Origin: a virus
Direction: 5' to 3' (one strand)
DNA: 64,000 nucleotides
IMG/VR virus record: IMGVR_UViG_3300043811_000226
The position numbers and the translations under genes were made by a program. Under the pieces are notes generated by a model, which was given only the letters and a program-made list of their open reading frames with translations, had not been told where the DNA came from and made no database searches. The stretch's first letter is position 1. The number at the start of each line of letters is the position of its first letter. Below, piece by piece: positions 5,719 through 33,898 of this stretch.

Positions 5719-5721
5719 GAT

Positions 5722-7482: not shown

Positions 7483-7491
7483 GAACGCGCG

Positions 7492-7974
7492 TTACTTCTT
7501 CTTGCCGCCAAGCGCGGCGCGCGTGACCATGTCCCCCATCGGAGAGCGCATCTTGTCGCGAAAGTTCAACGTCTCGACGACCTTGCCACCCGCATGCACG
7601 GGGTCTTCCATCATCTGACGTACGTAGCTACCGGCCACCGTGGGGTCCTTCGAGAACTGCGGGTTGAATGTGCGCAGCGTCGAGAACATCCGGTTTACCA
7701 GCCGAGGGTCCTCCTCGTGCTTGGCTGCAACATCCGGGTTGACCTCGAGCATCGCACGGAAGTCGCGGCTCTTGGTGGCGGCGTCGTAGATCGCCCCGGC
7801 AGCAGCAACTCCGCCCCCAACGGCAAGCGCGCCGGCGGCGCCCATGGCACCACGGCCGAGCGCGGCGCCCATGCGCCCCGGGTTGCTGAGGCCGGAGCCT
7901 GCCATGAGCCCTTGCCCGAACGACGCGGCCGTCTTCGTCTTCAGGTACTCCGTGACGGGATTCTCACTGCCCAC
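7492..7974 (-). CDS. Small Gly/Ala-zipper virion protein
   Basis: Start moved to GTG 7974 (GAGGT SD); KTKTAAS near the N-terminus; hydrophobic GAALGRGAMGAAGALAVGGG segment. Confidence 0.6.
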   Translation of the reverse strand: MGSENPVTEYLKTKTAASFGQGLMAGSGLSNPGRMGAALGRGAMGAAGALAVGGGVAAAGAIYDAATKSRDFRAMLEVNPDVAAKHEEDPRLVNRMFSTLRTFNPQFSKDPTVAGSYVRQMMEDPVHAGGKVVETLNFRDKMRSPMGDMVTRAALGGKKK

Positions 7975-9163
7975 TTTGGACCTCGTACTTGTGCCGGAGG
8001 TGCGCCGTCGTCCCCGGGATGTTGCGCGCGACGAGGTCGACCGCGCCTCGCGCGCCACGCGCCGGAAGGCTCGGGCTGTTCTGCATGTGGGTGTAAGCCT
8101 CCATGCCACCGATGCCGATGGCAGCTTCCGGCAAACGTGAAACCACCTTCTCGGCCACCGCACCCGCTGTAGGGCCGACTGTCTTCTCAACGAAAGGGCG
8201 GATGGCCTTGCCTGCCCCCGTGCTCACTCGAGAGGCTGTGTTGTACATGTCGGCGAGAGACGCCTGCTTGAGGTAGTGATCGAGATGCGCGGCGTGCTGG
8301 CGGAGCTCGCGCTGCGCTCCGCGCGTCTCGGCGAGCTTGGAGAGCACCGTGCAGAACTCCTCGAACTCGACGATGAGCGGGTGCTCGGTGTTCACCACCC
8401 TGGCGCTGGCGGTCTTGTCGACCGACGCGACCGCGGCTTCGAGCGTGTGAAAGACCCCGTCACGCAGCAGCCGCGGCGTGATCAAGGAGAAGGCCACCTT
8501 GATGTGATCCGCGCTCGGAGCCACCGTCGACCAGGCCTGCATCACATCACCCAGGCTGACGTCAGAGAGCGCCGCCTGCTTGACCTGGTGGTACACCCGG
8601 TCCCCGAGGTCGGCGTACATGACCTCTAGGCCATCGAGCTGCGTCTGCAGATGGTCCTCGGCGCCGGCGAGCTTGTCCTTCAGCTCGATGACTTCCGAGT
8701 GCGGATTGGCGTAAGGCAGCTCCGTCTTCAGGTCCGCACCGAAGATGGCACCGAGCTCACGCTCCGCGACGTCCGACTCGATGCTGGCCGTCTTCGGCGG
8801 TGCGTCGTAGTCTCCGGTGCCGCGATCGAAGACCGAGCCCCCACCCCCATCGTTCAGGTCCTGCAGGATGGCCGCCGGGTCGGCGGGTCCGCCCGGGAAG
8901 TCGACCACATGGTGCGTGGCGCCTTCCTTCTTGAAAGCCTCGAGGTAAGCCGCCGTGTTGGCAAACTCCGCTACCCTCTTCACCTGCTCGGGAGAGAGCT
9001 GCGCCTGCTTGACCGTGGTGACGACAGCGTCGGTCAGGGTCTTGTGCTCCCCCGCAGTCCAGTCGGCAGCCGCCTTCTTACCCAAAACCTCGAGGTACTC
9101 GCCCGAGTGGGAGTGTGCGTTCATTTGCTGCATCAGGCCGTGCCGGGGAAGGTCACTCATCAC
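7964..9163 (-). CDS. K-x-A-rich head protein
   Basis: 399 aa, about 9 K-x-A motifs; first gene of the head operon. Confidence 0.65.
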   Translation of the reverse strand: MMSDLPRHGLMQQMNAHSHSGEYLEVLGKKAAADWTAGEHKTLTDAVVTTVKQAQLSPEQVKRVAEFANTAAYLEAFKKEGATHHVVDFPGGPADPAAILQDLNDGGGGSVFDRGTGDYDAPPKTASIESDVAERELGAIFGADLKTELPYANPHSEVIELKDKLAGAEDHLQTQLDGLEVMYADLGDRVYHQVKQAALSDVSLGDVMQAWSTVAPSADHIKVAFSLITPRLLRDGVFHTLEAAVASVDKTASARVVNTEHPLIVEFEEFCTVLSKLAETRGAQRELRQHAAHLDHYLKQASLADMYNTASRVSTGAGKAIRPFVEKTVGPTAGAVAEKVVSRLPEAAIGIGGMEAYTHMQNSPSLPARGARGAVDLVARNIPGTTAHLRHKYEVQSGQ

Positions 9164-9208: not shown

Positions 9209-9895
9209 ATGGGAAGACAACCGCCCAGTGACTACGTCGACAAGGTCGAAGCAGCGAAGACGTTGGGCGTGTCCGTACGCACGCTCGACAACATGATCCA
9301 CAAGAACATGATCGTGCCGCACTCCTTTGCCGGCAGCAGGAAGGTCGTGTTTCTACGCTCCGATGTCTCTGCCTTGATGCAGGCCACAGGTGATGGAGGA
9401 CTCGACCTGGCCCAAGTGAAAGCGCTGGCCTTGGCTGCGCTGTCGACCTCCCGTCGCAACGAGCAGCGTATGGTGGAGCTCTATGCGCACCTGGGCATGG
9501 AACTTCTACCCCTCGCGCGTGATACGCATTCGGTGCGTTCGCTCTACGAAGAGGTGAAGCTCGGTGTAGAACCCTCGAGCGTCCACGACGCCGACTGGCT
9601 GCAGTTCTGGACCAACACCTTCTTCTCGATGGACGAGGTCTACCTTGAGCTCGTCACGCATCTGACTGGGGACGTAGAGCCGTGGTTGGTGTTCCACGAC
9701 TTAGCGAACGCCATCTTGCGAGAGCTGGATTCTTACGGACTGACACGCCCTGTGCGCATCTTCCGCGCCAGCCGAAACCACCTACGCCATGTGAGTTACA
9801 TGCACTGCCGCAGAGTGAAGGGGGTAGAAACCGCCGGCATCGTATTCGACGGCCGCGCGCGTGCGGTCGATGAGTTGAACGCCCTCATTGGTTAG
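9209..9895 (+). CDS. Excisionase/MerR-like HTH DNA-binding protein
   Basis: N-terminal EAAKTLGVSVRTLDNMI...RKVVFLRSDV matches the HTH_17-type pattern; helical C-terminal domain of unknown function. Confidence 0.7.
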   Translation: MGRQPPSDYVDKVEAAKTLGVSVRTLDNMIHKNMIVPHSFAGSRKVVFLRSDVSALMQATGDGGLDLAQVKALALAALSTSRRNEQRMVELYAHLGMELLPLARDTHSVRSLYEEVKLGVEPSSVHDADWLQFWTNTFFSMDEVYLELVTHLTGDVEPWLVFHDLANAILRELDSYGLTRPVRIFRASRNHLRHVSYMHCRRVKGVETAGIVFDGRARAVDELNALIG

Positions 9896-11748
9896 CCCTG
9901 ATCGATGGGACCGCGGTACCCGGTACGAAGCGGACCCTGACCAGGCATCTCCCTGATGGGGCTGATTATATCCGGACGCGGCACGAGGATCATCGAGACC
10001 ATCATGCAGTAGAGGATGGAGTGGAATGTGTCGTCGGGCCGGTCCGGACGGTGCGTGTACTGCAGCATCCTCAGCGCGTTATTGTACTCCGAGAAGATGT
10101 TCAGACAGTCGTTGCCGTAGGGATCCTCGAACTCTTCCCAGCACGGCAAGTCCACCTGCTGGCGCTTGATGGCGTTGAAGATGTCGCTCATCACCTCAGT
10201 GCGCACCATCTGCCAGCGGCGGAAGTTCGGGTTCCAGAAGACCTTCTTCTTTCCGCGCGCCATGTACTGGTACTTGTGTACGCGCTTTGGACCGAACTTC
10301 CGGGTCAGGTGGTCATTGCGATCGAAGCCGCCACCGTAGTCGGCGCCGATGAGGCGCACGTTGAAGTACTGCATCATCTCGTCGATCTTTGCGAGCTGCG
10401 GCTCGGGGTCGACGTCTTCTCCTGTGAAGCGATGCACGTAGAAGATGCGGAAGCGCTGGTGCACGTACGTGCCGAGGGAAAGCACCGTGTACGTATTTTC
10501 GCCTGTGCCCCAATCGATTCCAGCGAAAATAGGCTGCCCTGCACCAAGTGAGTGGTACGCATCGAGCGCGTCCATGTTCATGTGCAAGTCGGGCTTGCAG
10601 CACTCCTTGACCTGGGCGCGTGTCAGCGGACGAAGACCTGAATCGTACGAGACGCCGAGCACCTCGTTGTAGAACTTGGCGCGGTCGTAGCGTCCGTAGT
10701 CGAGCATGATCTCGTCCCACGACCGCCACGGGACCATCAGCTGCGGGATGCGGTAGCACTCGAAGATGCCACCCTCCTGCATCTCGGCCCACTGCGCATC
10801 CTCGTGCATCGGGTTGATGAGCTGACCGCACTTCTCGCAAGACAGACCCCGCCTCTGGATGTTCTTCTCCCCCAGGATGTTCCAGTAGCGACCCGCACCA
10901 TCGGCCGAGCCGCAGCGGTCGCAAGGCACAACCCACTCGCCCATCGTGCTCATGGCTCGCCCGCGAGAAGTCCCGCTACGGTAGAACTCGAGGACGTTGT
11001 CGAGTCCCTTGGGCGTACCGGCGTAGAGGAAGCGGCGCCACTGCTCAGGAGCGTGGCTGAGTGATTGCTCGATGACGGGGATGTTGTCCGAGAGCACGTC
11101 CTGCAACTCATCGACGGCCAGGCACCAGGCAGGAATGCCTCGGGTACGGTCGGCGTTCAGGAAGGCGTAGCGCATCGTAATCTTCGAGCGGTTGACGAAC
11201 TGCTTCTCGAAGACGTTCTGCTGAAGGAGGGTGGTCGTGTAGGCCTTGAGGATGTCGCTAGTCTCGAGCGGTTCCTTGATGCGGTCGACTGAGAAGGTCT
11301 TGGTCTGTGTGGCTGACGGCGACACGTAAAGCGTACGGAAGCCCTGCACCATGCACGAGTAAGTAATGATGCGGTTGCCGAGCAGCGTGGACTTCTCAAC
11401 CTGCCGTCCGCAGAAGAGGAGGACGCGCTTGGCTGGCGTGTCGTAGACCCGGCGCATGTGCCGGCGACCTTCGAAGGTAAAGTTCTCGTAGCCCATGCCG
11501 TCGACACGCGGCATGCGGAAGGCGAACTCAGTGAACTGTGAGGGGAGCACCGCCGGGATGACGGCAGGAGCCTTGCGATCGTCATCCAGAAACGTGAAGT
11601 CGTCGAAGAGGTCTGGCTCTGGGCACCAAGGCTGGCCGTTCTCCGCGTTGTAGAGTTCCTCGTCGGATAGCTCCTCCTCGAGTGCTTCGAGATCGAGCTC
11701 GAAAGACTTCGGCACATGATTGTGCCCGTGGTAGTTGGTACCCAACAT
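9892..11748 (-). CDS. Terminase large subunit (GpA-like)
   Basis: Walker A GRQVEKST, Walker B LAVDE, CxxC..CxxC finger, RNase H-like AGIDWG and PDDTFHS. Confidence 0.9.
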   Translation of the reverse strand: MLGTNYHGHNHVPKSFELDLEALEEELSDEELYNAENGQPWCPEPDLFDDFTFLDDDRKAPAVIPAVLPSQFTEFAFRMPRVDGMGYENFTFEGRRHMRRVYDTPAKRVLLFCGRQVEKSTLLGNRIITYSCMVQGFRTLYVSPSATQTKTFSVDRIKEPLETSDILKAYTTTLLQQNVFEKQFVNRSKITMRYAFLNADRTRGIPAWCLAVDELQDVLSDNIPVIEQSLSHAPEQWRRFLYAGTPKGLDNVLEFYRSGTSRGRAMSTMGEWVVPCDRCGSADGAGRYWNILGEKNIQRRGLSCEKCGQLINPMHEDAQWAEMQEGGIFECYRIPQLMVPWRSWDEIMLDYGRYDRAKFYNEVLGVSYDSGLRPLTRAQVKECCKPDLHMNMDALDAYHSLGAGQPIFAGIDWGTGENTYTVLSLGTYVHQRFRIFYVHRFTGEDVDPEPQLAKIDEMMQYFNVRLIGADYGGGFDRNDHLTRKFGPKRVHKYQYMARGKKKVFWNPNFRRWQMVRTEVMSDIFNAIKRQQVDLPCWEEFEDPYGNDCLNIFSEYNNALRMLQYTHRPDRPDDTFHSILYCMMVSMILVPRPDIISPIREMPGQGPLRTGYRGPIDQG

Positions 11749-15581: not shown

Positions 15582-16205
15582 CTATACCGTTCGGATGATA
15601 CCAGCCAGGGCGACCGAGGCAGAAGGGACCTTGGTCAGCATGATGACACCGAACACCTGCTCGAAAGGCAGGATGCCACCGATACCGCCAGAAACAAGAG
15701 CTGCGTACTCCGCCACCGAGCTGGCGAGAGTCGAAGGCGAAGCGTAGCCCACCGATAGAAGAACAAGAGGACCCGCCGATAGGTTGAAGCCTGCAAGCAG
15801 GTTCACCAGCGGCAGCTTCACGGACAGAACCGCTTCGATGAGGAACTTGATGCCGCCTATGCGAAGAGAGATCGCACCACCGAGGGAGAAGGACACACCG
15901 AGCGGAGGCAAGATGGGAAGACCGAGAGACAACGCGGCAGCGATGCTCGCCTGCACCTGCAACACCGACGCAAGAAGCGTCTTCAAGTAGGCGATGGGGT
16001 CGACGATCTGCAAAGAGAATGTGACCTGCGCCGCAAGGGCAGCTTGAAGCTGTGCTTGCAAGTCCGCGATGAGAGAACCGAGCCCGAAGGGACCCGTCAG
16101 CATCAGGTCGACTTGTGCCAGCAAGGGACCGATGAGCCCTACCGTTGTGCTCAGCCCGACGTTGATACCTCCAAGGGGCAGGTCGGCGATGAAGACGGTG
16201 CTCAA
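15582..16205 (-). CDS. Very hydrophobic protein coupled to the spike gene
   Basis: 207 aa, almost all L/A/G/I/V/S with few charged residues; ATGA overlap with the spike gene. Confidence 0.65.
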   Translation of the reverse strand: MSTVFIADLPLGGINVGLSTTVGLIGPLLAQVDLMLTGPFGLGSLIADLQAQLQAALAAQVTFSLQIVDPIAYLKTLLASVLQVQASIAAALSLGLPILPPLGVSFSLGGAISLRIGGIKFLIEAVLSVKLPLVNLLAGFNLSAGPLVLLSVGYASPSTLASSVAEYAALVSGGIGGILPFEQVFGVIMLTKVPSASVALAGIIRTV

Positions 16206-17452
16206 GCAAGAACCTTGTTGTTACCTGTGGCGATGGTGCCGGGTAGAGGCAACGCCGGCGGACACTGAATCGTTGCCGCACACGGGGTTCCTGGTGTAGG
16301 CGGATTGGAAAACGTGAGGATGACTGGGGCTGGTACAAGTAGAGGCAAAATGACCTGGTCGCCTAGACGGGCCACGGCTGTCAGTCCCGCCCCCAGACGA
16401 ACGGTGTCTCCCTTGATGTGCGAGTACGCACCTCCATCGATGTCGAAGCCGCTTCCCGCCGTCATCTGCGCGTTGCCGCCGAAGTGCCCCTCGAAGTCGC
16501 CCTTCACCTTGAAGGTGAGCTTCTTGTCGACCTGGAGGAGCATGTTGCCCTCCGTGCGCATGAGCGTGTTGCCTGTGCGGTCGAACGTGAACTTGAAGAC
16601 CGAGTTGGCGATGGTGGCCTGACTCGCTGTCTCCCCGCTCTCCGCCACGAAGCCTTTGGGGCTGACGGTCACCTCAAAGATGATGGGGTTCTTGCCCTTG
16701 CCGTCATCGCCTTGACCGACCCCCGCCTCCGCCAAGTTCTGCCCCCCATCCGGTTCGGGTATGGGCGCGAAGACCTTGCCGCAAGCGAGCTTCACATCAG
16801 CAAACTGGTCGGTCGAGAAGACCCGAAAGGTCTGCATGTACTGACCGGGGATCTGTGTCTGGGAGGGTCCTTCCTGGATGCCCCACACAACGGAGCCCGC
16901 AGAGTTGTGGTGCTCGTAGTTCTCGCTGATGTCCTCGACCAGGTTGTTGAGCGGGATGAAGATGCGCTGAGCGAGCTCGGTTGCACCGATCTGCAGTACA
17001 CCCCCTCGATGCAGGATGACGAAGTTGCCGTCACGCGTGCGCATGACGATGTCACCGGGCTTGGGCTGCAGGCGTCCGCCGGCGAAGGTGGCGTCGGTTG
17101 TGTTGGCAGGCTGCTGTGCATGTGATGTCGTACCGGCCGGCGCGTCGTCACTCGCGTCGTCGATGGTCTCGGACGCCATGAGGAACATGCTGACGTACGG
17201 CGGTGAGCTGTCCGATGGGACGGTGACCGTGCACGTCGCGCCGACTTCTGGAAAGACGTACACGCCCTCCCCGTTCGAGTGGTGCAAGTAGAGACCACCC
17301 ACCTGGATGTCGAAGTACTTCTTGCGGTCGAACTGTGCGTTGACGTCGACCGTCCACTTCACGAGGTTGATGTTCGTGATCCGTCCCTGAATTACGCGCG
17401 CTGGGTCGTGACCCTCTACGTGCGTGAAGGACGTTCTGAACTTCGAGGCCAT
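16202..17452 (-). CDS. Baseplate central spike (gp5/GpV/VgrG-like) with PAAR-like tip
   Basis: N-terminal OB-fold-like segment (GRITNINL..PEVGATC), beta-repeat stalk (GNMLLQVDKKLTFKVKGD), C-terminal VARLGD...GTIATGNNKVLA. Confidence 0.7.
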   Translation of the reverse strand: MASKFRTSFTHVEGHDPARVIQGRITNINLVKWTVDVNAQFDRKKYFDIQVGGLYLHHSNGEGVYVFPEVGATCTVTVPSDSSPPYVSMFLMASETIDDASDDAPAGTTSHAQQPANTTDATFAGGRLQPKPGDIVMRTRDGNFVILHRGGVLQIGATELAQRIFIPLNNLVEDISENYEHHNSAGSVVWGIQEGPSQTQIPGQYMQTFRVFSTDQFADVKLACGKVFAPIPEPDGGQNLAEAGVGQGDDGKGKNPIIFEVTVSPKGFVAESGETASQATIANSVFKFTFDRTGNTLMRTEGNMLLQVDKKLTFKVKGDFEGHFGGNAQMTAGSGFDIDGGAYSHIKGDTVRLGAGLTAVARLGDQVILPLLVPAPVILTFSNPPTPGTPCAATIQCPPALPLPGTIATGNNKVLA

Positions 17453-17455: not shown

Positions 17456-20400
17456 CTAGTAGTGGTGGGACGGTACAGCCTTCAGGTGCTCTCGCCCAGG
17501 CACCAGAGAGTCCTTCTTCGTCAGCCCAAACTCGGCCCCAAAAGCCACGCCCGGCACAGGATGCGTTCCGTGGAGGTGCGATACGCCGGCAGTTGCTGCT
17601 GCATCCAGCAACGTCGCACGAAGCTTCTCGTGCTGCAACTTCGCCATCCAGTCTTCTTGCATCTCGAGGGGTAGGGCCGTGATGCCCTTGAGCACGGGGG
17701 TGTGTTCTATGGGAGTGAGTCCTTGCGCCGCGAGCTCCTTGTTCCTCTTGTTGACCGAGGTCAAAGGACGGTACTCCCCTGGTAGAACATCTGGGTGACC
17801 ACCGGGGTCGACGACGCGGGTGAGGTTACTCATTGCCTTGACCACGGTCTCGACCGCGCGACGCTTGATGTCGGTCTCCTTGTACAACCCGTAGATCTCG
17901 TTGGACAGATGGTTCTGCACCTTCTCCATGGAACCGGTGGCCTCATAGATGCGGTGCGGGTTGGCGAACGTGCGGTTCGGGTCCGAGAGATGATCTCCTG
18001 CTGTTACGTGCATTCCTACAGCAGGAGGCTTCCATGCCTTGTAGCCGACAAGTGCCTCGGCGTTGGGAAGATTTTTGTGCAAGGGCAGACCACTGTCGTC
18101 CTTGCCGACGTGGTGCCGCCGATTGTTCACGAAGACGTCGACGCCCGTAGCCGTTGGCTGCACCTTGTCGATGGTCCCGGAAACCATGGCGAGCGATGCC
18201 TCGTTCGGCAGCTCGTCGTGAAGCTCCATCAGTTGCTTGAACCGAGAGAAGGAGGAAAGAAGCTTCGAGCCGTGTTGTTCGCCAACGCCCCCCATGTGGA
18301 AGCTCTTGAGCGTGAGTTGCATGGCACGTTCGCCGACCGCATGCGCTGAATGCACGCCCACGTTCGTTCCGAGGTCGTGATGCTGCCCGCCGGCACTGAG
18401 CCCCATACACTTTTGGCAGATGCCCTTCTCGCTCTCGCACTTGAGCGGTGAGCGAACAAGAAGCGTTCCGTTAGGCTTGGCGGCCTTCACCTTACTGACG
18501 AGGTCCGGTGTCAGAAGCGTTCCGGCAGGAATGTGCAGCTTGCCGTGAGAGAAATCCTGCTGCAAGTAGCGGTCGTGTATGTCCGGCTCGTTGATATCGA
18601 GCGCGATGCCTTTGCTGGTACCGCAATCGTGCTCGTCTACGAGCATGTGCATCATGTTGTTCATGAGCCGCTTGGACATGTACCCAGGCTCGCTCACTTC
18701 CTGCACCTTCATGACCGCACCGCGCCGTGCGCCGTGCATCTGCGTCCAGTAACCGCCCAGATCCAGGCCTTCGGAGTAGCTCCTGGTGACTGGAGTCGCG
18801 ATCTCCTTGTCGTTCGAATCCTTGTAGATCATAGGAGCGATGACCATCTGCTTGTAGTTGTCCCAGCCCGGCTTCACACCCGCACGGTACATCGTGAAGA
18901 GGTTGGTCGGATCCTTGTCCTGCTTCTTCTCATGCAGGGCACGCATCTCCTTGTCCGCCTTCTTGTAGAGGACGAGAGCCTGCTGATCCTTCTCAGCCTG
19001 GGAGAGACGCGAGTTGTGCTCGATGACGTCGACCTGCTTCATCACCGGGGCGAGTACGTGGTCACGCACCTGAGTGTCGGGCGTGAAATCGGCCAAGGAT
19101 AGCGTGTGCGCTCCCATGGGAACGAAGACCGACTTCTCCTTGATCGCCACGGGCGTCTTATCGAGCGTTTTGAAGAGGAGCTTGTGACCTGCACTCGTAG
19201 GCTGCGGTATGTCGACCACGCCAAAGGCCGCGCCGTTGCCCAGGTCCTTCAGCTTGTTGACGGCCTCCCCATACTGCGGTGCGTGCTCTTTGGCGACCTG
19301 TGTGAGTAGGGTGTCGAGACCACCTTTGTTGATGCGGTAGTCGAGGTTGTGCAACGTGTGCGTCTGCATGTCCGCGGGCAGGGCGCTCGAGAGCAGAACA
19401 CGACCTGCCGTGGTCTTCTTTCCACCCAGGTGCACCACATCGTTCACGTGCAAGCTGCCGCTACGTACGGCATCGAGGATGCTGCCGGGGTGGTCGAACT
19501 TTTTTCCCGTGTCCTTGCCAACCAACGACAGCTTGTAGAGGCCGAGGGCGCTCTCGAGCGTCGGCTGGTACATGACCTTGCCGCTCGCCTCGCTGAAGAG
19601 GTTGTTCGACGGGAACATCTTGTGCGCCTCTTCGAGCGCTTCGCGCGTGATGGGCACGAAGGCACTCATCGTGTCGCCGTCGAAGTCGGCGTTGAAGCCG
19701 CCAGTCACAAGCGGGTGGATCTTGATGGCGCTGCCCTCGACTGGACGGGCCTTGAAGGCCTGCACGCTGTACTTGTGCAGGGCCGGGTCGCGCTTCAGAA
19801 GGAGAGGGCGCTTGTCCATCACCCGGTCAAGAGCACGCCAGACCTGCGGCGTCTTCTTGGCGAGAGCCGCAGGTCCCTGCATCTCGTTCTGAATGGCGCC
19901 CATCTCCTTGAGCTCGCGCACGACGAAGGGGCGGTACAGGTCCAGTGCGGCATGCCTGGGGATCCCCACTTCATCAAGTCCGAGCGCGGGCTCCGGAACG
20001 ATGGTGGACCGCATCGTCAGGTCCTGACGCCGGTTGATGAGAACGTCCTGGAAGAAGCCATGCTTAGGCGAGCTCCCCGTGATCTCGTGGAGAAGCCCCT
20101 TGTGCGGAACCTCCGCATACGTGCCGAAGCCCATGATGGCCTTGACGCCATCGTAGTAGTCGCGGCGTAGATCCTTCTTGCCCTCGTCGGTGAGGTTCTT
20201 GGAGAGAACCGGGTCCTTCAGCTTGTCGTTGACCTTGGCGAAGTCCGAGTAGAGCGAGTTGATGTCGTGGAACCGTACGTTGCCATCAGGCAGCATCGAG
20301 ACCGGACGCATGATGGGTGGCAGCACAGGTAGCTGGTGAAGTACGTACGCCTCGCTCGGCTTCATGCCTGTCTGGCTGAGTGCACGCAAGTACTTCACCT

Positions 20401-23400
20401 TTTTCAGGCCCTGGTCGAGCTTGGCGCCCTTGACTCCCTTGAGAGCCGCGGTCGCCTTGGGGAGCTCCTTGTTCACGTCGACGCGGTTCAGAAGAAGCTC
20501 GATGCCGGCGCCGCCAGTGACACCGGCGTCGACGCTCGTGACGTGACCGTTCGCCGTAACTCCCTTGTCTCCGTGTACGACCGCCATGAAGTCGTTCTTG
20601 GAGAGGCCCGTCAGAGCACGAATGGGCGTCTCGAAGATGGGGTTGGGCACTGGCTCGGAGAGACGAATGCGTGACCAGCGACGGCCTCCATGGCCTCCTG
20701 TGATCCCCTCGTCGAACAAGCCACCCGGCTTGACTTTCGGGATGCCACTCTTGTCTAGCTTCGAAGAGAGGATGTCGGCGGGGTTGGGCAGCTCTTTCTT
20801 CGCCAGGTTGAGCACGTGCTCGTCTGTCATCGGCGTCAGAACGAAGTCGTTGCCCTTCTTGTCCATGTTCACACCCATGCCGCGAAGCATGTCGGTGAAC
20901 TTCTGGAAGGCGAAGGCGGGCTTCGGCGTGGGCAGAGGAGCACCTGTCTGAATGGCCGCCCAGATCTTGTCGTGGTCACTCGGCCAACGCTTGCTCGGAT
21001 CAGACTGCGGATCGCGCCCCTCCGACTTGTACGTCTGCATCTCGCGGATGTTCGCCTTCGCTCCATGCGCGAGGAGCGCGTAGAGGCCGAGCGTGCCCAT
21101 GGACTGGCCTCCTGTACCGGAACCACCTGTAGGCTGCAGATTCGTATCGTAGTGCTCCTGCGCTCCTCCGCGCAGGTCCATACCGCTTCGTACTGAGAGC
21201 TTCTTCTCGACCTGGTGGGCCAGCTTCAAGTGGTGCTGTGGTCCCACCATCACCTTGCCCAGACTCTGCTTGGTGGCCGGATCGAAAAGCTCCTCGGTGT
21301 CTGAGAGACCGTGCGCTTTGAGCGCGGCGCGCACCTCCGCCAAGCTGTCGACGTTCGGTGCGAAGTTGCGGACGATGTAGGGCTTATGTGTCTTCTCTGC
21401 AATCTTGCCGGCCGCCGTCTCGAGCAGCTGGCCAACGTTCATGCGCCCCGGCACGCCGCTAGGATTGAGCGCCACTTCGACGTGCTTGCCGTCCTTGGTG
21501 TGCGGCATCTCCTGGTCAGGCAGGATCATCGTGACGATGCCCTTGTTGCCGTAGCGCCCGGCCATCTTGTCGCCGACCTGCATCGGCTCGACCGTACGTA
21601 CATGCACGGACAGGCCGTCTTTGCCTTTGTGCACCCCAACGACCTCACCCTCGAAGTCGCTGTCCCAGAGAAGACTCTTGTTCGTGTGCCCTCCGCTCAT
21701 GCTCTTGCGGATGGCAGCGAGGCCGGTCCTGTCTTTCAGGTTGTACGGCTTCATCGCCGCGATGAGCGGGTCGCCAGGCTTGACCTTGGTGCCCACTTTT
21801 ATGACGCCATCGTCGTCGAGGCGTGCGTACTGCTCCTTGCTAAAGAGACCTGGATGCTCGAGGTGGAACTTCTTCTTGCTCAGCACCAGGTCCGAATCGA
21901 GCGGCAGCGAGTGCTTCTGCAAGTGCTCGCTCGAGAGCTTCTCGGCAGCACTCTCTGAAATGACGATGCCGTCCTCGAAGTTGTATCCCTTGAAGGGAAT
22001 GTACGCGGTGCGCAAGTTGGTACCAAGCGCGAGGTCGCCGTTCTTCGAGTAGTTCGTGTCCGCGATGATCTGCCCCGCCTTCACCGAGTCTCCGGCTTTC
22101 ACGAGAGTCGTCGAGTGCATGACCCCCTTCGCATCATTGAGCGGGTAGTTGTTGTAGAGCTGCACCTCGTGCTTCTGTCCGCCCTTGTCCTCGAGGATGA
22201 TGGCGTCCTTCTTCACGTCGAGGACCTTGCCGTCGACAAGGGACGCATGTGACGACTGCCGCCCCATCATCCCTTCGAACGTCGGCGAAGACTTCATCCC
22301 CGTTCCCACCTGCACGAGTGGTGCTTGCCGATGTACGAGGGAGACGGCTTGCTCCATCTGACGACTGGCCATCGAAGCCCGCCCGCCGCTCGTGTTGCCG
22401 AGGAAAGGGATGAGGTTCGACGTCGGGTTGAACAGCTGCCATGCGTGCGGCATCACGTAAGTGGCATCCTCGAACTTGCCGTCTCGGATCTCGTTTCCGG
22501 GCGTGCTCATTCGAACGGTCTTGGCGATGGGCTTCGGCTTGCCGCCCTCCCAGGTCACTTGATCAGGAAGAACAACACTCGCGTGCATAAACTTCGTGGG
22601 CGAGACGAGCTCCGTCTCGCCTGTGCGAAGGTTGTGCAGACGAATCTTGACCTCGTGTCCCTCCTTCTTGATCCCGATGGGCATGCGCAGCGTGACGCCC
22701 GTCTTCTCCCCTTCCGGTGTATTGATGGGATCGAGGAACCCGAGATGGCTCGGGTCGACGAACTTGGCGTTGTAGGTGATGGAGCGCTCGTTCTTGATGC
22801 CGCCCGTCCCCATCACGGTCGTCTGCAGCGCCGACGAGATCATTTCGACGGGGTTGTACTGAGACGGTACGCGCGCAGAGCTGTTCTTGTGGAAGGACTC
22901 CTTGAGCGGCCGGTTGAACAAGTCGAACTTGATGACGTCTCGGATGTCCTTGGCGGTGTTGATCTTGCGCGACGTCTTCTCCTGGATGTTGCGGTTGGCG
23001 TAGCGAAGGGCGTCGTTGGCGTAGTCGCCCACCGTACGCAGATCCTTGAAGACGAGTGAGTCGCGGTCGTCCTCAGGATGTCCAGCGTGCACCTTCAGTA
23101 ACTTCTGCGTCGCGAGGCGCAGCGCTTCACCCGTCACGTTGGTGAACGGCTTGCCGACCGTGACTTCGGTCGCGTCAGGACGAAGCGTCGACGCGGACAT
23201 CCGGTCGTAGAAATGCGTCGCTGCAGTCTCTCGATCCGGAGCTGCGGTCTTCTTGGTCGTTCGGTAGAAAGAATCGAGCACGCCGGACGCACCACGCGCG
23301 TTCTTGTTCGCCTCGAGCACTTCTTTGCCCCAGGCCTTCTCGAGGTCGTGGTCCTCCACCCCCATCGTCTTGAGCAGGTGGTAGAGCGGCATGTGCGTCT

Positions 23401-23899
23401 TGCTCGGCTCGTACTGCATCGAGAAGACCTTGCTCGCAGGATCGAGCAAGAGGTCGAACTGGCGCACACCCTTGGCAGTCGCACTGCCGGTCACGTTGAA
23501 GTGGCTCTCGAGCTCACCGCTCGCGCGCCGGCGCGTGTAGATGCCAGGCTTGAGCTGCCACTGGTTGTCGACCTGGTACTCCTGCCCGTTGATGATGTAC
23601 GAGTAGCGTCCCGTGATCTTCGGGATGTCCACGAGGCGGATGCGTCGCTGGTCGACGACCTTACCGCTGGCGTTGTCTTTGAGCGTGAGGTGCGCGTAGA
23701 CGGGTACGGCCCACGTATCCCCGCTCACTTTCGCCGCGTGCTGGCTGCGGATGTCGTCAGGGTGCTTGTCGTCCTTCACCTCAATCTTGTCGAGGTGAAC
23801 AGTCTGCAACTTTCCCTTGAGGGGGAACTGTCCTGAGATGCCTTCCAGGACGCGTCCTTGAAGTTGCTCGGACGCTTCCTGCAGGTCGAGGTAGGCCAT
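17456..23899 (-). CDS. rpoBC: DNA-directed RNA polymerase, beta and beta' fused in one ~2147-aa chain
   Basis: Beta motifs TPEGEKTG, GYNFEDGI, GDKMAGRYGNKG, LNPSGVPGRMNVGQ and GGQSMG. Beta' motifs LPVLPP.MRP, RDPALH, FNADFDGD (19673-19693), HGARRG and trigger loop QLTLKSFH. Start moved to MAYLDL. Confidence 0.95.
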   Translation of the reverse strand: MAYLDLQEASEQLQGRVLEGISGQFPLKGKLQTVHLDKIEVKDDKHPDDIRSQHAAKVSGDTWAVPVYAHLTLKDNASGKVVDQRRIRLVDIPKITGRYSYIINGQEYQVDNQWQLKPGIYTRRRASGELESHFNVTGSATAKGVRQFDLLLDPASKVFSMQYEPSKTHMPLYHLLKTMGVEDHDLEKAWGKEVLEANKNARGASGVLDSFYRTTKKTAAPDRETAATHFYDRMSASTLRPDATEVTVGKPFTNVTGEALRLATQKLLKVHAGHPEDDRDSLVFKDLRTVGDYANDALRYANRNIQEKTSRKINTAKDIRDVIKFDLFNRPLKESFHKNSSARVPSQYNPVEMISSALQTTVMGTGGIKNERSITYNAKFVDPSHLGFLDPINTPEGEKTGVTLRMPIGIKKEGHEVKIRLHNLRTGETELVSPTKFMHASVVLPDQVTWEGGKPKPIAKTVRMSTPGNEIRDGKFEDATYVMPHAWQLFNPTSNLIPFLGNTSGGRASMASRQMEQAVSLVHRQAPLVQVGTGMKSSPTFEGMMGRQSSHASLVDGKVLDVKKDAIILEDKGGQKHEVQLYNNYPLNDAKGVMHSTTLVKAGDSVKAGQIIADTNYSKNGDLALGTNLRTAYIPFKGYNFEDGIVISESAAEKLSSEHLQKHSLPLDSDLVLSKKKFHLEHPGLFSKEQYARLDDDGVIKVGTKVKPGDPLIAAMKPYNLKDRTGLAAIRKSMSGGHTNKSLLWDSDFEGEVVGVHKGKDGLSVHVRTVEPMQVGDKMAGRYGNKGIVTMILPDQEMPHTKDGKHVEVALNPSGVPGRMNVGQLLETAAGKIAEKTHKPYIVRNFAPNVDSLAEVRAALKAHGLSDTEELFDPATKQSLGKVMVGPQHHLKLAHQVEKKLSVRSGMDLRGGAQEHYDTNLQPTGGSGTGGQSMGTLGLYALLAHGAKANIREMQTYKSEGRDPQSDPSKRWPSDHDKIWAAIQTGAPLPTPKPAFAFQKFTDMLRGMGVNMDKKGNDFVLTPMTDEHVLNLAKKELPNPADILSSKLDKSGIPKVKPGGLFDEGITGGHGGRRWSRIRLSEPVPNPIFETPIRALTGLSKNDFMAVVHGDKGVTANGHVTSVDAGVTGGAGIELLLNRVDVNKELPKATAALKGVKGAKLDQGLKKVKYLRALSQTGMKPSEAYVLHQLPVLPPIMRPVSMLPDGNVRFHDINSLYSDFAKVNDKLKDPVLSKNLTDEGKKDLRRDYYDGVKAIMGFGTYAEVPHKGLLHEITGSSPKHGFFQDVLINRRQDLTMRSTIVPEPALGLDEVGIPRHAALDLYRPFVVRELKEMGAIQNEMQGPAALAKKTPQVWRALDRVMDKRPLLLKRDPALHKYSVQAFKARPVEGSAIKIHPLVTGGFNADFDGDTMSAFVPITREALEEAHKMFPSNNLFSEASGKVMYQPTLESALGLYKLSLVGKDTGKKFDHPGSILDAVRSGSLHVNDVVHLGGKKTTAGRVLLSSALPADMQTHTLHNLDYRINKGGLDTLLTQVAKEHAPQYGEAVNKLKDLGNGAAFGVVDIPQPTSAGHKLLFKTLDKTPVAIKEKSVFVPMGAHTLSLADFTPDTQVRDHVLAPVMKQVDVIEHNSRLSQAEKDQQALVLYKKADKEMRALHEKKQDKDPTNLFTMYRAGVKPGWDNYKQMVIAPMIYKDSNDKEIATPVTRSYSEGLDLGGYWTQMHGARRGAVMKVQEVSEPGYMSKRLMNNMMHMLVDEHDCGTSKGIALDINEPDIHDRYLQQDFSHGKLHIPAGTLLTPDLVSKVKAAKPNGTLLVRSPLKCESEKGICQKCMGLSAGGQHHDLGTNVGVHSAHAVGERAMQLTLKSFHMGGVGEQHGSKLLSSFSRFKQLMELHDELPNEASLAMVSGTIDKVQPTATGVDVFVNNRRHHVGKDDSGLPLHKNLPNAEALVGYKAWKPPAVGMHVTAGDHLSDPNRTFANPHRIYEATGSMEKVQNHLSNEIYGLYKETDIKRRAVETVVKAMSNLTRVVDPGGHPDVLPGEYRPLTSVNKRNKELAAQGLTPIEHTPVLKGITALPLEMQEDWMAKLQHEKLRATLLDAAATAGVSHLHGTHPVPGVAFGAEFGLTKKDSLVPGREHLKAVPSHHY

Positions 23900-23972: not shown

Positions 23973-23980
23973 GGCATAAG
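23973..23980 (+). promoter_or_regulatory. GGCATAAG candidate promoter element
   Basis: 38 nt before ATG 24019; the motif recurs at three other operon starts. Confidence 0.55.
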
Positions 23981-24833: not shown

Positions 24834-25414
24834 TGGCTGAGCTGACTATGCAGCCCTCCGGCCAGGTCTGTGCGGACTGCGGCGAAAACATCCGCTACAC
24901 AGAAGAAGCGTGGCTGGTGCAGGTCGTTCAGCTGCAGAAGGTCGGCGACCAGCTTCAGTACACGCCAGTCATCGATGAAACAGACCCAGCGCGCGACTTC
25001 CTGTTCTCACCGTACTTCTTCTGCTTCAACTGCTGGGAGAACAGCTACGAAGATCTAAAGGACGAGCTGGAAGACCAGCCGCCCAACGAAGACCCCCACA
25101 GCATCGCTGAGTGCACCTGCTGCGGTAGCAGCATTCGGGCTGGTGAGTACACAGGGCTCTTCATGGTCGGAGAGTTCCACTTGTCGCGTAGGTCGCCGAA
25201 CGGCGTGTCGGGAGGGACCTTCCAACCAAACGCTGCGCCTGAGGCGCTCTGCTTCTACTGCCTCTACATCCTCAACGACAACTTCATCGAGATGTGGGAC
25301 GAAGTCTCGCAATTCGGTGAGTGCGCAGACTGCATCTTCGTTCGCTGCTGGAGAGGTGCTTCCTGCTCCTGCGGCTGCCATACACCTGCACTCGAGACCA
25401 CGGAGACAACCTGA
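24818..25414 (+). CDS. Acidic Cys-rich multi-zinc-finger protein
   Basis: CADC, CFNC, CTCC, CFYC and CADC..C..C.CGCH; start moved to MEPNLV. Confidence 0.65.
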   Translation: MEPNLVAELTMQPSGQVCADCGENIRYTEEAWLVQVVQLQKVGDQLQYTPVIDETDPARDFLFSPYFFCFNCWENSYEDLKDELEDQPPNEDPHSIAECTCCGSSIRAGEYTGLFMVGEFHLSRRSPNGVSGGTFQPNAAPEALCFYCLYILNDNFIEMWDEVSQFGECADCIFVRCWRGASCSCGCHTPALETTETT

Positions 25415-26598
25415 TGGCGACCAACCCTGAGAACCTGCTGACCATTGCTTTGCTCACGCCGCAAGACGACCCGCGCGACCCTGTCTGCCGATGGGGAGGT
25501 CCAGTCCTTCTCTGGGGGCCGCCGGGCATCGGCAAGTCAGGCATCATCGAGCAGACCGGCGAAGGCCTCGACCTGTCTGTCGAGACGCTTTACCTCTCAA
25601 CCCTGCAACCGGAGGACATCTCAGGCATTCCGATGCCAGACGCTAAGTTCGGTGCGAGGCGCGTGTGCGACCTGCCGCAGATCCAAGGTCTCTACGAAGC
25701 AGGTCGAGGCATTCTCTTTCTCGACGAGCTCACTACAGCGCGTCCCGCAGTCCAGGGAGCAGGTCTCGGCATCGTCTACAACCGCAAGATCGCCGGCAAG
25801 CACCTACCTCCTGGTGTCAGGGTCGTCGGTGCTGCCAACAAGGCCGAAGACGCCGCCGGCGGCTGGAACTTGGCTGCCCCCATGGCCAACCGCCTGCTTC
25901 ACTTCGACCTAACCGCACCGTCTCCCGAGAAGTGGGCCTCCTGGTTGCTCACAGGTCCCAACGAGATGCCCATCTCCATCACCGCAGGCGAGGAGATGGT
26001 ACGAGAACAATGGGGCAGCATCTGGCCCAAGTACCAGGGTCTCGGTGCAGGCTTCGTCAAGAGCAACGGTGCCAAACTCTACGCCATGCCGGCAGCGGGT
26101 CACAAGGACCGAGGGCGTGCATGGGCGTCTCCGCGCAGCTGGGTTAGTGCACTTCGTTGCATGGCCACTGCTGAAGCGCTCGACATGAAGGAGTACGCGC
26201 TCGACATGCTCACCGGCGCAGTGGGTGACGGTCCTGGAGCGGAGTGGGCAGAGTGGGTCGCGAAAGCGAACCTGCCAGACCCGAAGGACATCCTCGAGAA
26301 CGGCTGGCACCCGGATCGATCTCGGCTCGATGTCGCGTTCGCTGCCTACTCGTCGGCCATCGGATGGGCCTTGTGCAAGGTCGACAAGGCCGAACAGGAG
26401 AAGTACGCCGTCATGGCCTGGGACCTCATCGCGATGGCCATCAAGGACCGCGTGGCCGACATCGTGCTGCCCTGCGGCGCGTCGCTGATGCGCGCCGGGT
26501 ACACCACCAAGAAAGGCGGTGCCATCGCCAAGGCTGCCATGGGTCCCACAGTGCACTTTGGCGAGACGAACCTCGCCAACTACGTGAGTAAGAGATGA
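25414..26598 (+). CDS. MoxR-like AAA+ ATPase
   Basis: Walker A GPPGIGKS, Walker B LFLDE, sensor GAAN, APMANR; ATG overlaps the upstream TGA. Confidence 0.85.
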   Translation: MATNPENLLTIALLTPQDDPRDPVCRWGGPVLLWGPPGIGKSGIIEQTGEGLDLSVETLYLSTLQPEDISGIPMPDAKFGARRVCDLPQIQGLYEAGRGILFLDELTTARPAVQGAGLGIVYNRKIAGKHLPPGVRVVGAANKAEDAAGGWNLAAPMANRLLHFDLTAPSPEKWASWLLTGPNEMPISITAGEEMVREQWGSIWPKYQGLGAGFVKSNGAKLYAMPAAGHKDRGRAWASPRSWVSALRCMATAEALDMKEYALDMLTGAVGDGPGAEWAEWVAKANLPDPKDILENGWHPDRSRLDVAFAAYSSAIGWALCKVDKAEQEKYAVMAWDLIAMAIKDRVADIVLPCGASLMRAGYTTKKGGAIAKAAMGPTVHFGETNLANYVSKR

Positions 26599-27977
26599 CG
26601 ACGCACGAAGAGAAGATCGAACTGGCGAGGGCGTGCGCAGTCTTCGGTGCGCCCTACTTCGCAAGCGTCATCTACGGGTTCATCTACACACCCGTGGAAG
26701 GCGCGCGAACCATGTTCTGCACACCGAGAATGATCCTCGGCTACGACCCAGAATGGGCCATGGAGGGTACGGTTGAAGAGCTGGCCGCGGACATCGTGCA
26801 CGAAGTCCACCACTTCCGACGAGAGCACTTCGTACGCGGCGCGCTCGTAGAAGACAAGAAGCTCTTCAACCTCGCCGGCGACCTCGCCATCAACCCGGAC
26901 CTGAAAGCGGGGGGGTGGAAGCTCGCTACTACAAAACGACCCGCTGTCTTTCCGGAACACTACGGTTTGCCTCCAGGGCTGACAACCGAGCAGTACTACG
27001 AGCTGCTCTTGCAGCAGAAGCACAAGACGGGTCAGCGTCCGAAGCCGAAGAACGCGCAACCAAAGGACGGCAAAGGTCCACCGCAGCCGAACGCGGGAGG
27101 AGGCGAGGAACAAGACGAGTCCGAAGAAGCGCAGGAGGGCATCTGTCAGGGCAGCTGCGGAGGCATTGCAGGCAACCCCAGTAGTTCTGGACTCGAGGCG
27201 AAGCTCGATGCACAGAAGAACGTCGGCCGAAGCGAAGCCGAGATCAAGGGCATCGAAAAGAAGCTGGCGAATGACATCAAGGAGTTCGCGGCCAAGAACG
27301 GCCGCGGCTCCGTTCCCAGCTCCCTTCTCGACTGGGCCACCACCTTCGAGACGGAGTCTTACGTCCGCTGGCAAGACGAGCTTGCGCAGGTCCTTCGCGA
27401 CAACACGGGGCGCATCCAGTCCGGCGGCGATGACTTCTCGCTGCAGAGGCCTGCGAAGCGGTCCATCATGCGAGGTATGCCGCGGCCAGGTCTTGTAGAA
27501 CACCTGCCGGAGGTGGCCATCCTTCGCGACAGCTCCGGGTCGATGGGCTCCAAACAGCTAACGGATGCCTGCCGTGAGGCGTACTACGTCATGGAAGCAC
27601 TCGGCATCGACGAGGTCTGGTTCGCCGATGCTGACACGGCCATCTCCGTTCCTTGGAAGCGTGTAGGCGCGCAGTTCTTCAAGGAGCTGACGGAAGTGTA
27701 TGGGCGCGGCGGCACCGACTTCCGCCAACCCATAGAGAGCGCGCTCGCACTCAACCCACACCCGGACATCATCGTGTACACCACTGATGGAGATGGTTCG
27801 GTCGCGCGCATGCCGCCCCCTGACGCCGCTGTCATCTGGTGCATCGTACCAAGCCACTACAACAAGGCACCCGCACGCTGGGGCCACACAGTTATCATCA
27901 GCGACGACCCGAAGAAGAGGAACGCGCCCATCCAGTACGCCGGCGAAATAGAGGAGACAGAGGAGGATGACGACTAG
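26595..27977 (+). CDS. HEXXH metallopeptidase-like + VWA protein (DUF2201-type)
   Basis: HEVHH, NLAGDLAIN, MIDAS DSSGS, GGTDF, TTDG. Confidence 0.85.
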   Translation: MTTHEEKIELARACAVFGAPYFASVIYGFIYTPVEGARTMFCTPRMILGYDPEWAMEGTVEELAADIVHEVHHFRREHFVRGALVEDKKLFNLAGDLAINPDLKAGGWKLATTKRPAVFPEHYGLPPGLTTEQYYELLLQQKHKTGQRPKPKNAQPKDGKGPPQPNAGGGEEQDESEEAQEGICQGSCGGIAGNPSSSGLEAKLDAQKNVGRSEAEIKGIEKKLANDIKEFAAKNGRGSVPSSLLDWATTFETESYVRWQDELAQVLRDNTGRIQSGGDDFSLQRPAKRSIMRGMPRPGLVEHLPEVAILRDSSGSMGSKQLTDACREAYYVMEALGIDEVWFADADTAISVPWKRVGAQFFKELTEVYGRGGTDFRQPIESALALNPHPDIIVYTTDGDGSVARMPPPDAAVIWCIVPSHYNKAPARWGHTVIISDDPKKRNAPIQYAGEIEETEEDDD

Positions 27978-28203: not shown

Positions 28204-28242
28204 AAAGAAGTAGCCGGCCCGAAAGGGCTGGCCTTCTTTCTA
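28201..28242. terminator. Bidirectional intrinsic terminator
   Basis: TAGAAAGAAG-TA-GCCGGCCC-GAAA-GGGCTGGC-CTTCTTTCTA between convergent operons. Confidence 0.8.
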
Positions 28243-33886: not shown

Positions 33887-33892
33887 GCCGAC

Positions 33893-33898
33893 ATAGTA
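33893..33898 (-). promoter_or_regulatory. TACTAT -10-like hexamer, 6 nt before ATG (leaderless candidate)
   Basis: GGTG TACTAT GTCGGC ATG; no SD. Confidence 0.5.

Follow-up and report, generated by a model that had tools for sequence, protein, structure and literature searches.

This locus raises the question of whether, in an uncultured phage with a genome of approximately 171 kb, one long gene accounts for both beta and beta' of a bacterial-type RNA polymerase and, if so, how such an enzyme would work. The whole stretch of DNA analysed, 64,000 nucleotides, is called here the window. A single minus-strand reading frame in it, from 23977 to 17456, corresponds to 2173 amino acids (ORF listing and translation). 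We place the true start at the ATG at 23899, as in the earlier note, because homologues begin there (their N-termini, MAYL(D/N)P, align at this position), because the ATG at 23977 has no ribosome-binding site and because the JGI gene call likewise gives 2147 aa. Both large subunits are contained in this single 2147-residue protein. In what follows, residue numbers of motifs follow the 2173-aa translation.

17456..23899, minus strand: fused beta-beta' RNA polymerase gene, 2147 aa plus stop (ORF, translation, Pfam, homologue N-termini, JGI call)
20852..23899, minus strand: beta half, a complete small beta including the N-terminal lobes, residues 27-1042 (AlphaFold, VIA-align)
17459..20851, minus strand: beta' half, residues 1043-2173 (phmmer, Foldseek)

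Pfam places Rpb2_3 and Rpb2_6 (residues 372-931; E 2.7e-59 for Rpb2_6) ahead of Rpb1_1, Rpb1_2 and Rpb1_5 (residues 1183-2061), and a phmmer comparison of the beta' half with PDB beta' chains gives E 3e-93. Structure prediction, which had been proposed as a check, was run, and the AlphaFold models of both halves match the bacterial folds. The beta-half model (pLDDT 79.4, pTM 0.74) aligns with bacterial beta with VIA-align Z values of 30-33 (approximately 860 residues, rmsd 3.3-4.0, model residues 1 to approximately 912-1026), and the beta'-half model matches bacterial beta' with a Foldseek TM of 0.55-0.62. Motifs were read from an alignment with beta and beta' of E. coli, S. aureus and Myxococcota:

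21680..21760, minus strand: flap-tip region, residues 740-766, recognisable
21539..21574, minus strand: beta active-site motif GDKMAGRYGNKG with lysines K804 and K812 (clade identity 0.74)
20060..20323, minus strand: lid, clamp coiled-coil and rudder, residues 1219-1306
19673..19693, minus strand: catalytic NADFDGD, residues 1429-1435 (clade identity 0.86)
18653..18772, minus strand: bridge helix, residues 1736-1775
18407..18625, minus strand: second zinc site, kept (C1785, C1847, C1854 and C1857, invariant in A1)
18209..18376, minus strand: trigger loop without the SI3 insert, His1894 kept

The NFED pair (E668, D669) and His921 of beta are also present, and all catalytic elements of the fused chain are intact. 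The earlier note had described essentially all conserved blocks of beta followed by those of beta' in one ORF, with NADFDGD, both beta lysines, the flap tip, the bridge helix and the trigger-loop His; domain order and alignment confirm this order and recover every one of these motifs. This single chain makes up a two-barrel core of the bacterial type.

20831..20872, minus strand: beta-beta' junction hairpin, strands 1036-1041 and 1044-1049 around a K-x-G turn

At the junction, GVNMDKKG (the end of beta, residue 1042) continues into NDFVLTPMTD (approximately residue 18 of E. coli beta'). The join had been described as a linker of approximately 6 aa. Its position and sequence stand, but it is not a loose linker, since it forms a conserved beta-hairpin: DSSP assigns both strands in both AlphaFold models, and all 23 sequences compared keep the K and G of the turn. 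In the models the hairpin couples the last beta strand to the first conserved beta' strand. The alignment places here the pattern G-x-N-x-x-K/R-x-G/N that is common to the Arash/D69 type, and the junction is identical in Arash, D69 and L150; by sequence, then, the same beta-beta' junction is already present in the cultured phages Arash and D69, which the earlier note did not mention.

The phage origin of the locus is borne out by genes for a large terminase, a spike, DnaB, a primase and PolA in the window. The polymerase gene is the first of a co-directional run in which the terminase gene is the last, and the spike gene lies 3 nt downstream of it in the same direction.

16202..17452, minus strand: 416-aa central tail spike or baseplate hub (gpV/gp5/VgrG-like; Atlas feature scores, structure rows)

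The spike assignment is based on Atlas feature scores of 0.93-0.96 and on structure rows to the Phage_base_V and Gp5_OB families; the gene also has a weak match to the baseplate family phrog_9992.

The same continuous ORF recurs in 72 or more IMG/VR contigs and, once proteins are clustered at 50% identity, in over 150 clusters, and it is unbroken in all of the best 150 representatives; the C-terminal third of beta' is continuous here and in all 24 aligned clade members. To judge from these sequences, the fused layout is common to hundreds of related phages. We found no published description of it in the literature. The clade consists of uncultured tailed phages with genomes of approximately 170-200 kb (complete relatives are 186-196 kb with terminal repeats) and occurs abundantly in metagenomes from soil, sediment and aquatic sites. 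One relative is classed as a provirus by IMG/VR and a copy occurs in a Pendulispora chromosome, so some members of the clade may be temperate.

Phylogenetic analysis, also proposed earlier, places the fused clade outside the bacterial clades sampled: the bacteria, a thin sample of three or four phyla that includes the candidate host phylum Myxococcota but neither Campylobacterota nor Wolbachia, group together on one side of the tree (100% support), and the Pendulispora host copy lies among them. Arash together with the Vibrio phages D69, D148 and D181 forms the sister clade of the fused clade in both trees (100% SH-aLRT). In the beta' tree a separate mReC-like clade, including the listed mReC contig L129, takes part in an unresolved three-way split between Bacteria, mReC and Arash plus the fused clade.

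The closest known relatives are Salmonella phage Arash (Gp206 and Gp216, with sigma Gp10; OQ632216.1, PMC10585845) and D69, D148 and D181. Arash and D69 share the identical junction and the loss of a zinc-binding domain described below, the Arash/D69-group genomes are of similar size (approximately 180-187 kb), and Arash has a homologous FliA/WhiG-like sigma and a polymerase gene that lies among particle genes, adjoining the portal gene. They differ in having only 31-33% identity to the fused chain, a beta' that is split after approximately residue 1522 (the remainder is a separate protein of approximately 606 aa encoded several genes away), the catalytic motif AADYDGD and a trigger loop that does not align with the FH motif of the window. 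In the available text of the Arash report, Gp206 is named merely 'subunit beta' and the fusion is not mentioned (PMC10585845).

Deep-branching RNA polymerase phages from metagenomes had been suggested as a possible home for this lineage. These are the mReC phages (Weinheimer and Aylward 2020, PMC7481178), which are likewise uncultured and tailed, come partly from the same metagenomes and carry alignable bacterial-type beta and beta'. They appear to be a different lineage: they form the separate clade noted above and, in the available portion of that report, beta and beta' are two separate proteins, with two sets on some contigs. The mReC terminase and capsid belong to PF03237 and PF07068 (PMC7481178), whereas the terminase here matches PF05876; PF07068 matched none of ten structural-region proteins in a Pfam scan, the ORF at 32399-33901 having been scanned with PHROGs only.

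Other systems share single features. The phiKZ/AR9 jumbo phages also encode a two-barrel enzyme without alpha and omega, and one of their two sets is virion-borne; however, these enzymes comprise four or five polypeptides, with two sets per genome and no recognisable sigma (PMC7598289), whereas the fused clade has one chain, one gene and, in relatives, a recognisable sigma-70-family factor. Both barrels are also found in one polypeptide in crAss-like gp66, YonO and the P23-45 tape-measure fusion, and some of these divergent single-chain polymerases are virion-borne (PMC7481178, PMC10770324). They are too divergent for cellular beta/beta' profiles (PMC7481178), whereas the fused chain has strong Pfam Rpb1/Rpb2 matches and aligns end to end with the bacterial subunits. 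The rpoB-rpoC fusions of Helicobacteraceae and Wolbachia also have beta then beta' in one chain (PMC7483510), but these are normal cellular polymerases that have alpha, omega and a housekeeping sigma. The phage clade lies outside the sampled bacteria.

What might such a core work with? No alpha, omega or sigma gene had been seen in the window, and this holds: tblastn with the sigma factors of relatives found no sigma in it, and none of the 30 window ORFs scanned against family libraries matched any of the three. Alpha and omega (PF01000, PF01193, PF01192) likewise had no Pfam match in five near-complete relatives (positive controls 14/14). Each complete genome has one Rpb2_6 match and no second polymerase. 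The picture of a minimal machine without sigma is not supported by the comparison, given a FliA/WhiG-like sigma in 7/7 complete clade relatives and in Arash, together with bipartite promoter-like motifs. The sigma of G003 and G006 has a homologue in Arash Gp10 (E 1e-27), and a sigma of this type is found in 5/5 further genomes (E 1e-45 to 1e-71); the best family for the relatives' sigma is FliA/WhiG, within the sigma-70 family. Some relatives have additional small sigma factors.

23973..23980, plus strand: GGCATAAG box of the divergent plus-strand operon (motif count, sequence context)

The bipartite promoter-like motifs precede replication operons. The box listed above falls within the 119-nt gap that precedes the polymerase gene and is one of three copies of an intergenic CAA-N19/20-GGCATAAG, the others being at 33950 and 38925; GGSATAAG occurs 5 times against 1.05 expected. 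Sigma-70-type sites are almost absent, with none upstream of operons in the 29 kb scanned, and no promoter of the polymerase gene itself was found.

20660..20725, minus strand: site of the missing zinc-binding domain, where GGLFDEGITGGHGG abuts RRWSRIRL (alignment)

In bacteria the flap tip is the docking site of sigma region 4 and the clamp coiled-coil that of sigma region 2, and an N-terminal zinc-binding domain of beta' helps the holoenzyme to grip promoter DNA. The first two elements are kept. Bacteria and Rhizobium phage TM30 have the third (E. coli beta' 68-99, with four Cys), but it has no counterpart here, throughout the clade or in either Arash or D69; beta' also lacks any lineage-specific inserts.

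The best explanation, which we consider probable, is that the fused chain is the only RNA polymerase of its clade and acts as a single-chain core with a phage sigma, possibly carried in the virion. The covalent link, instead of an alpha dimer, would keep the beta and beta' halves together. Promoter recognition would come from the phage's own FliA/WhiG-like sigma, known from relatives, which may dock on the clamp coiled-coil and the flap tip that the fused chain has kept, and the holoenzyme would then read the bipartite CAA-N19/20-GGCATAAG promoters. Co-occurrence of sigma and fused chain does not by itself tell binding to the fused chain from binding to the host core. Two observations weigh against this explanation: the zinc-binding domain is missing, and conservation of the flap tip and the clamp helices does not exceed that of the whole protein (within-clade identity 0.43 and 0.51, respectively, against 0.52 overall).

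Virion packaging of the polymerase, which would be made together with the late particle proteins, seems to us evenly poised. The lead comes from the place of the gene at the head of the run that the terminase closes, from the spike gene 3 nt away and from the Arash homologues: in the available text of that report, mass spectrometry of particles detected Gp206 (with the highest number of spectra), Gp216 and sigma Gp10. The preparation contained 116 proteins, and the authors allow for carry-over of abundant enzymes, so on that text packaging is unproven even in Arash (PMC10585845). A packed polymerase might enter the cell alongside the DNA and permit early transcription without the host polymerase.

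22772..22897, minus strand: counterpart of rifampicin cluster I and fork loop 2 (alignment)

Key residues of cluster I are altered relative to E. coli (D516 to S, H526 to S and S531 to T), and the fused polymerase may be insensitive to rifampicin. The fullest version of our explanation is a self-sufficient holoenzyme in the particle, that is, a single-chain core without alpha and omega plus a sigma-70-family factor, which would serve its own promoters from the first minute, would need no host polymerase, would probably not be inhibited by rifampicin, and would represent a third deep branch beside Bacteria and mReC. This we regard as possible but doubtful.

Somewhat below an even chance is the alternative that the enzyme is not packaged: the host polymerase would transcribe the first genes and the phage enzyme would be made later for middle and late transcription. 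Packaging is, after all, deduced just from gene position and from one proteome, listing 116 'particle' proteins in the available text, of a relative with 31-33% identity; a folded protein of approximately 240 kDa would be a hard cargo, and possible temperate members (the provirus-classed relative, the Pendulispora copy) would fit the same view. It is less easily reconciled with a scan of 29 kb in which no operon is preceded by a sigma-70-type promoter, with a single polymerase gene per genome that is co-directional with and 3 nt before the spike gene, and with the detection of the Arash homologues and sigma in particles.

It is unlikely that the phage sigma instead redirects the host core, as in T4-like or SPO1-like phages, and that the fused polymerase finds its promoters with a different factor or unaided. 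Phage sigmas usually work with the host core (PMC7598289), and the unremarkable conservation of the docking surfaces, the missing zinc-binding domain and the extra small sigma factors of some relatives would agree with this. Sigma and polymerase are nevertheless co-inherited across Arash and the fused clade (7/7 genomes), both were found in Arash particles according to the available text (PMC10585845), and the clamp coiled-coil and flap tip are kept.

Rather improbable is a continued need for a host alpha dimer, and perhaps omega, in assembly or activity. Alpha is universal in cellular enzymes and is still used by the Helicobacter and Wolbachia fusions (PMC7483510), but known phage multisubunit polymerases function without alpha and omega (PMC7598289), and identity to host beta' is only 31-37% even in conserved stretches, so host alpha contacts are unlikely to have been kept. 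A spurious ORF created by misassembly or a frameshift, contaminating cellular DNA and a recently captured host rpoBC can all be dismissed as extremely improbable, because the same continuous ORF and junction recur in so many contigs and clusters, phage hallmark genes surround the gene, complete relatives have terminal repeats and the bacteria, Pendulispora host copy included, lie together on one side of the tree, and no evidence for any of these was found.

If the proposed mechanism is correct, these phages have a two-polypeptide, sigma-dependent RNA polymerase that assembles without alpha and omega and, if the self-sufficient reading is also true, the simplest sigma-dependent RNA polymerase known. 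The fused enzyme is near enough to the bacterial one for residue-by-residue alignment, and would then provide a compact model for the folding and assembly of the large subunits, for sigma docking and promoter opening and for the contribution of the zinc-binding domain and inserts. Reviews present phages as having a multisubunit polymerase of their own or else a sigma that serves the host enzyme (PMC7598289); a very large uncultured family with both a fused polymerase and a sigma alters this picture. The cultured relatives Arash and D69 make the predictions testable now, and the family touches Myxococcota genomes.

The polymerase gene has tailed-phage surroundings and is the first in a series of minus-strand genes whose last member is the large terminase. 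A helicase, DnaB, a primase, PolA and a UvsX-like recombinase are encoded by operons on the plus strand. The principal features are as follows:

9892-11748, minus strand: large terminase, at the end of the gene run headed by the polymerase gene
23977-17456, minus strand: fused beta-beta' polymerase, one open frame of 2173 amino acids
23973-23980, 33950-33957 and 38925-38932, plus strand: CAA-N19/20-GGCATAAG bipartite promoter-like motif, intergenic

The earlier note had described a near-complete beta-beta' fusion in one ORF, and the single frame, the order of the Pfam domains (Rpb2_3, Rpb2_6, then Rpb1_1, Rpb1_2 and Rpb1_5) and the aligned motifs all agree with this. The true start is placed at the ATG at 23899, giving a protein of 2147 amino acids, because the N-termini of homologues, MAYL(D/N)P, fall there and because the JGI gene call of an identical protein, carried on a contig of 170,766 bp, is also 2147 amino acids long. 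The ATG at 23977 has no ribosome-binding site and overlaps the promoter-like box of the divergent operon. In an alignment of 24 clade members, Salmonella phage Arash, Vibrio phage D69 and nine bacterial beta-plus-beta' pairs, the beta half retains the fork region, NFED, the two-lysine motif GDKMAGRYGNKG, His921 and a recognisable flap tip, and is without the SI1 and SI2 inserts of E. coli. The beta' half retains the lid, clamp coiled-coil, rudder, NADFDGD, bridge helix, second zinc site and trigger-loop histidine; SI3 and the N-terminal zinc-binding domain (E. coli 68-99) are absent. Within rifampicin cluster I the protein carries D516 to S, H526 to S and S531 to T, and with these changed residues the enzyme would be expected to be insensitive to rifampicin.

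At the junction, the last conserved beta strand (...GVNMDKKG) continues directly into beta' at about E. coli residue 18 (NDFVLTPMTD). Structure prediction, suggested in the earlier note, was carried out for each half using a 23-sequence alignment, and the models match bacterial beta and beta', respectively. The beta-half model (pLDDT 79.4, pTM 0.74) aligns with bacterial beta at Z 30-33 over approximately 860 residues. Since the match starts at residue 1, the N-terminal beta lobes missed by Pfam are present. The beta'-half model (pLDDT 74.9) gives a TM of 0.55-0.62 with bacterial beta'. Both models show the junction as a hairpin of two strands (residues 1036-1041 and 1044-1049 of the 2173-amino-acid translation); the K and G of its turn are invariant throughout the alignment, so the join is a conserved part of the structure rather than a loose linker. 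It had originally been read as a linker of about six residues, and its position (GVNM-DKKGND-FVLTP) stands.

The fusion is no artefact, and it is not rare. A word-indexed protein search gave, among the matches listed, 120 clusters (at 90% identity) that are 55-74% identical to the window protein; nearly all are either full-length (2120-2170 amino acids) or longer because of inteins, with three shorter ones (1952-2045 amino acids), and members occur on contigs of up to about 200 kb. At least 72 IMG/VR contigs carry homologues (39-73% identical), and wherever the ORF is not truncated by the end of its contig, both halves are present. With the beta' half as query, an exhaustive HMMER search identified 2472 proteins at E ≤ 1e-30. 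The best 150 representatives (at 50% identity) all belong to the fused family, and in full-length matches the beta' part begins near residue 1000. The recurrence of the same continuous ORF across IMG/VR contigs and protein clusters speaks against the stop or frameshift at the junction that had been envisaged as a possible flaw. A more divergent fused polymerase (IMGVR_UViG_3300005265_000857, here L150; ORF 3058-8847, 1930 amino acids, 35% identical) has the same junction; in the beta' tree it branches as sister to the main fused clade.

In many family members the polymerase is interrupted by inteins (PF14528), often by several of them, which bring it to 2400-4739 amino acids (for example, homologues P0013, P0029, P0049, P0061 and others, and P0123-P0196). 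The window's own copy has none.

Among cultured phages, Salmonella phage Arash and Vibrio phages D69, D148 and D181 come closest (31-33% identity). In the Arash/D69 type, a protein of about 1525 amino acids comprises beta and the first third of beta', and the remainder lies on a separate protein of about 606 amino acids, whereas the window polymerase is one chain. The junction and the loss of the zinc-binding domain are the same in both, which places the fusion before the split of the fused clade from the Arash/D69 group. At the nucleotide level, a search against isolated phages returned only a chance-level match of 179 nt.

In a concatenated tree (2005 columns, with bacteria from three phyla including the Pendulispora host copy), the bacteria make up one side, the fused sequences are monophyletic and their sister is Arash plus D69, all with 100% support. 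Nesting within a cellular clade, a possibility raised in the earlier note, is therefore not what the phylogeny gives: the fused clade lies outside the sampled bacteria. A beta' tree under a site-heterogeneous model, rooted on giant-virus RPB1, contains three lineages without a settled order: Bacteria; an mReC-like clade including a contig listed by the authors who described multisubunit-RNAP-encoding Caudovirales (mReC; PMC7481178); and Rhizobium phage TM30 together with the Arash-like, L150 and fused groups. A deep-branching position for the fused lineage is supported, but not settled, by these trees, whose cellular sequences all came from three or four bacterial phyla. Recent capture from a host can be rejected, as host beta' is only 31-37% identical locally across 201 Myxococcota genomes.

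It had also been suggested that RNAP-encoding phages from metagenomes might already represent this lineage. The mReC appear to be a different group: in every supplement entry examined their beta and beta' are a pair of separate proteins, whereas the window polymerase is fused. Their terminase family (PF03237) differs from that of the window, and none of the ten structural-region proteins of the window scanned with Pfam matched their capsid family (PF07068). The parts of the supplement examined include no fused entry and no protein of the length typical of the fused clade. In those same parts, several mReC contigs list two different beta/beta' pairs (for example, about 1364/1005 and 1011/904 amino acids), so that genomes of that lineage may hold two polymerases each, compared with a single gene in the fused clade.

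The Pendulispora rubella chromosome (L004/G009, CP089983.1) carries a 60% identical copy as an intact ORF of 2147 amino acids (C1:9200431-9206928), with the same neighbours as in the window on both the MoxR/VWA and the spike side. This is not an intact prophage: the terminase homologue (C1:9115219-9116949) is 85 kb distant and on the opposite strand, and a phage PolA is missing. It is probably a rearranged prophage remnant. Phage-type copies occur in 2 of 201 Myxococcota genomes, the other being a metagenome-assembled genome that holds fragments (the contig scan of genomes gave one fragment of 2 kb). Myxococcota may be the host phylum of some members of the fused family.

The next gene begins 3 nt past the polymerase stop. 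Its product may resemble central spike/baseplate-hub proteins (Phage_base_V, Gp5_OB and VgrG, scores 0.93-0.96), a lead based on protein-language features and structure, together with a weak PHROG baseplate match. The structural neighbours (739 and 416 amino acids) had no match in isolated phages, and most particle genes have no Pfam or PHROGs match. On the other side, a divergent operon (25321-27977, plus strand) encodes an AAA+ ATPase (phrog_1297) and a 460-amino-acid protein; their Pendulispora counterparts carry AAA_5 and DUF2201 (VWA-type), and the pairing with the polymerase gene is conserved. Beside the terminase on the opposite strand (9209-9895, plus strand) is a 228-amino-acid HTH_17 protein, possibly a regulator, which is kept in the relative G003 (28% identity, E 1e-14). 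In G001, the closest complete relative, the terminase lies in a 1014-amino-acid frame (C1:84536-87382, minus strand) and the match is split (residues 22-425 and 414-618), suggesting an intein or other insert.

Partner genes were sought in seven near-complete relatives in place of the rest of the window's genome. Five of these each have exactly one polymerase gene and no match to the Pfam families for alpha or omega (control genomes were positive in 14 of 14 cases). The earlier observation that no sigma gene is visible holds for the 64-kb window, where searches with sigma factors from relatives found none, but does not extend to the lineage, since all seven relatives carry a sigma like Arash Gp10, a protein annotated as a sigma factor and found in particles (PMC10585845). 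Gp10 is homologous to a 248-amino-acid protein of G003 and a 336-amino-acid protein of G006, and its like is present in all five other complete genomes searched (E 1e-45 to 1e-71; 269 amino acids in G001). Pfam detects regions 3 and 4; the best NCBIfam models are FliA/WhiG, at scores far under the curated cut-offs, which makes it a divergent member. Some relatives have further small sigma factors with regions 2 and 4. One of these, from G004, found no match in G001-G003 or the window; the conserved sigma is the Gp10-like protein. Two weak Sigma70_r4 matches (G001 and G007) are HNH-HTH proteins and were dropped.

A two-box promoter of fixed spacing is what a sigma-70-family factor reads. The three CAA-N19/20-GGCATAAG copies lie 35-38 nt ahead of the ribosome-binding sites of plus-strand operons at 24019, 33996 and 38968, and GGSATAAG occurs 5 times in the window compared with 1.05 expected. 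Sigma-70 consensus sites in the 29 kb scanned numbered 0 and 1 (1.7 and 3.0 expected), the single site being intragenic. No such bipartite box was found upstream of the polymerase gene, which would place it in another promoter class. At operon ends are two strong hairpins resembling intrinsic terminators (42754-42780 and 28213-28232, plus strand; 11 and 8 pairs, GC-rich, with a T-rich tail after each).

According to reviews, the multisubunit polymerases of phages are split, have no alpha and come with no recognisable sigma factors, and jumbo phages that encode a sigma have no polymerase of their own (PMC7598289; PMC7824862). A limited literature search found no published description of the fused lineage. 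The enzyme is an intact, compact, single-chain core of bacterial type. The hairpin link would take over from the alpha platform, and the phage sigma would dock at the clamp coiled-coil and flap tip, both of which are retained. The details of this docking may be different, since conservation of the two surfaces does not exceed that of the whole protein and the zinc-binding domain has been lost. The polymerase gene stands at the head of the particle genes and, in Arash, Gp206 (beta and part of beta') gave the most spectra in the particle proteome, where Gp216 (the rest of beta') and Gp10 were also found; that preparation contained 116 proteins and its authors allow for carry-over (PMC10585845). 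Together, these points tentatively suggest that the polymerase may be delivered in the particle.
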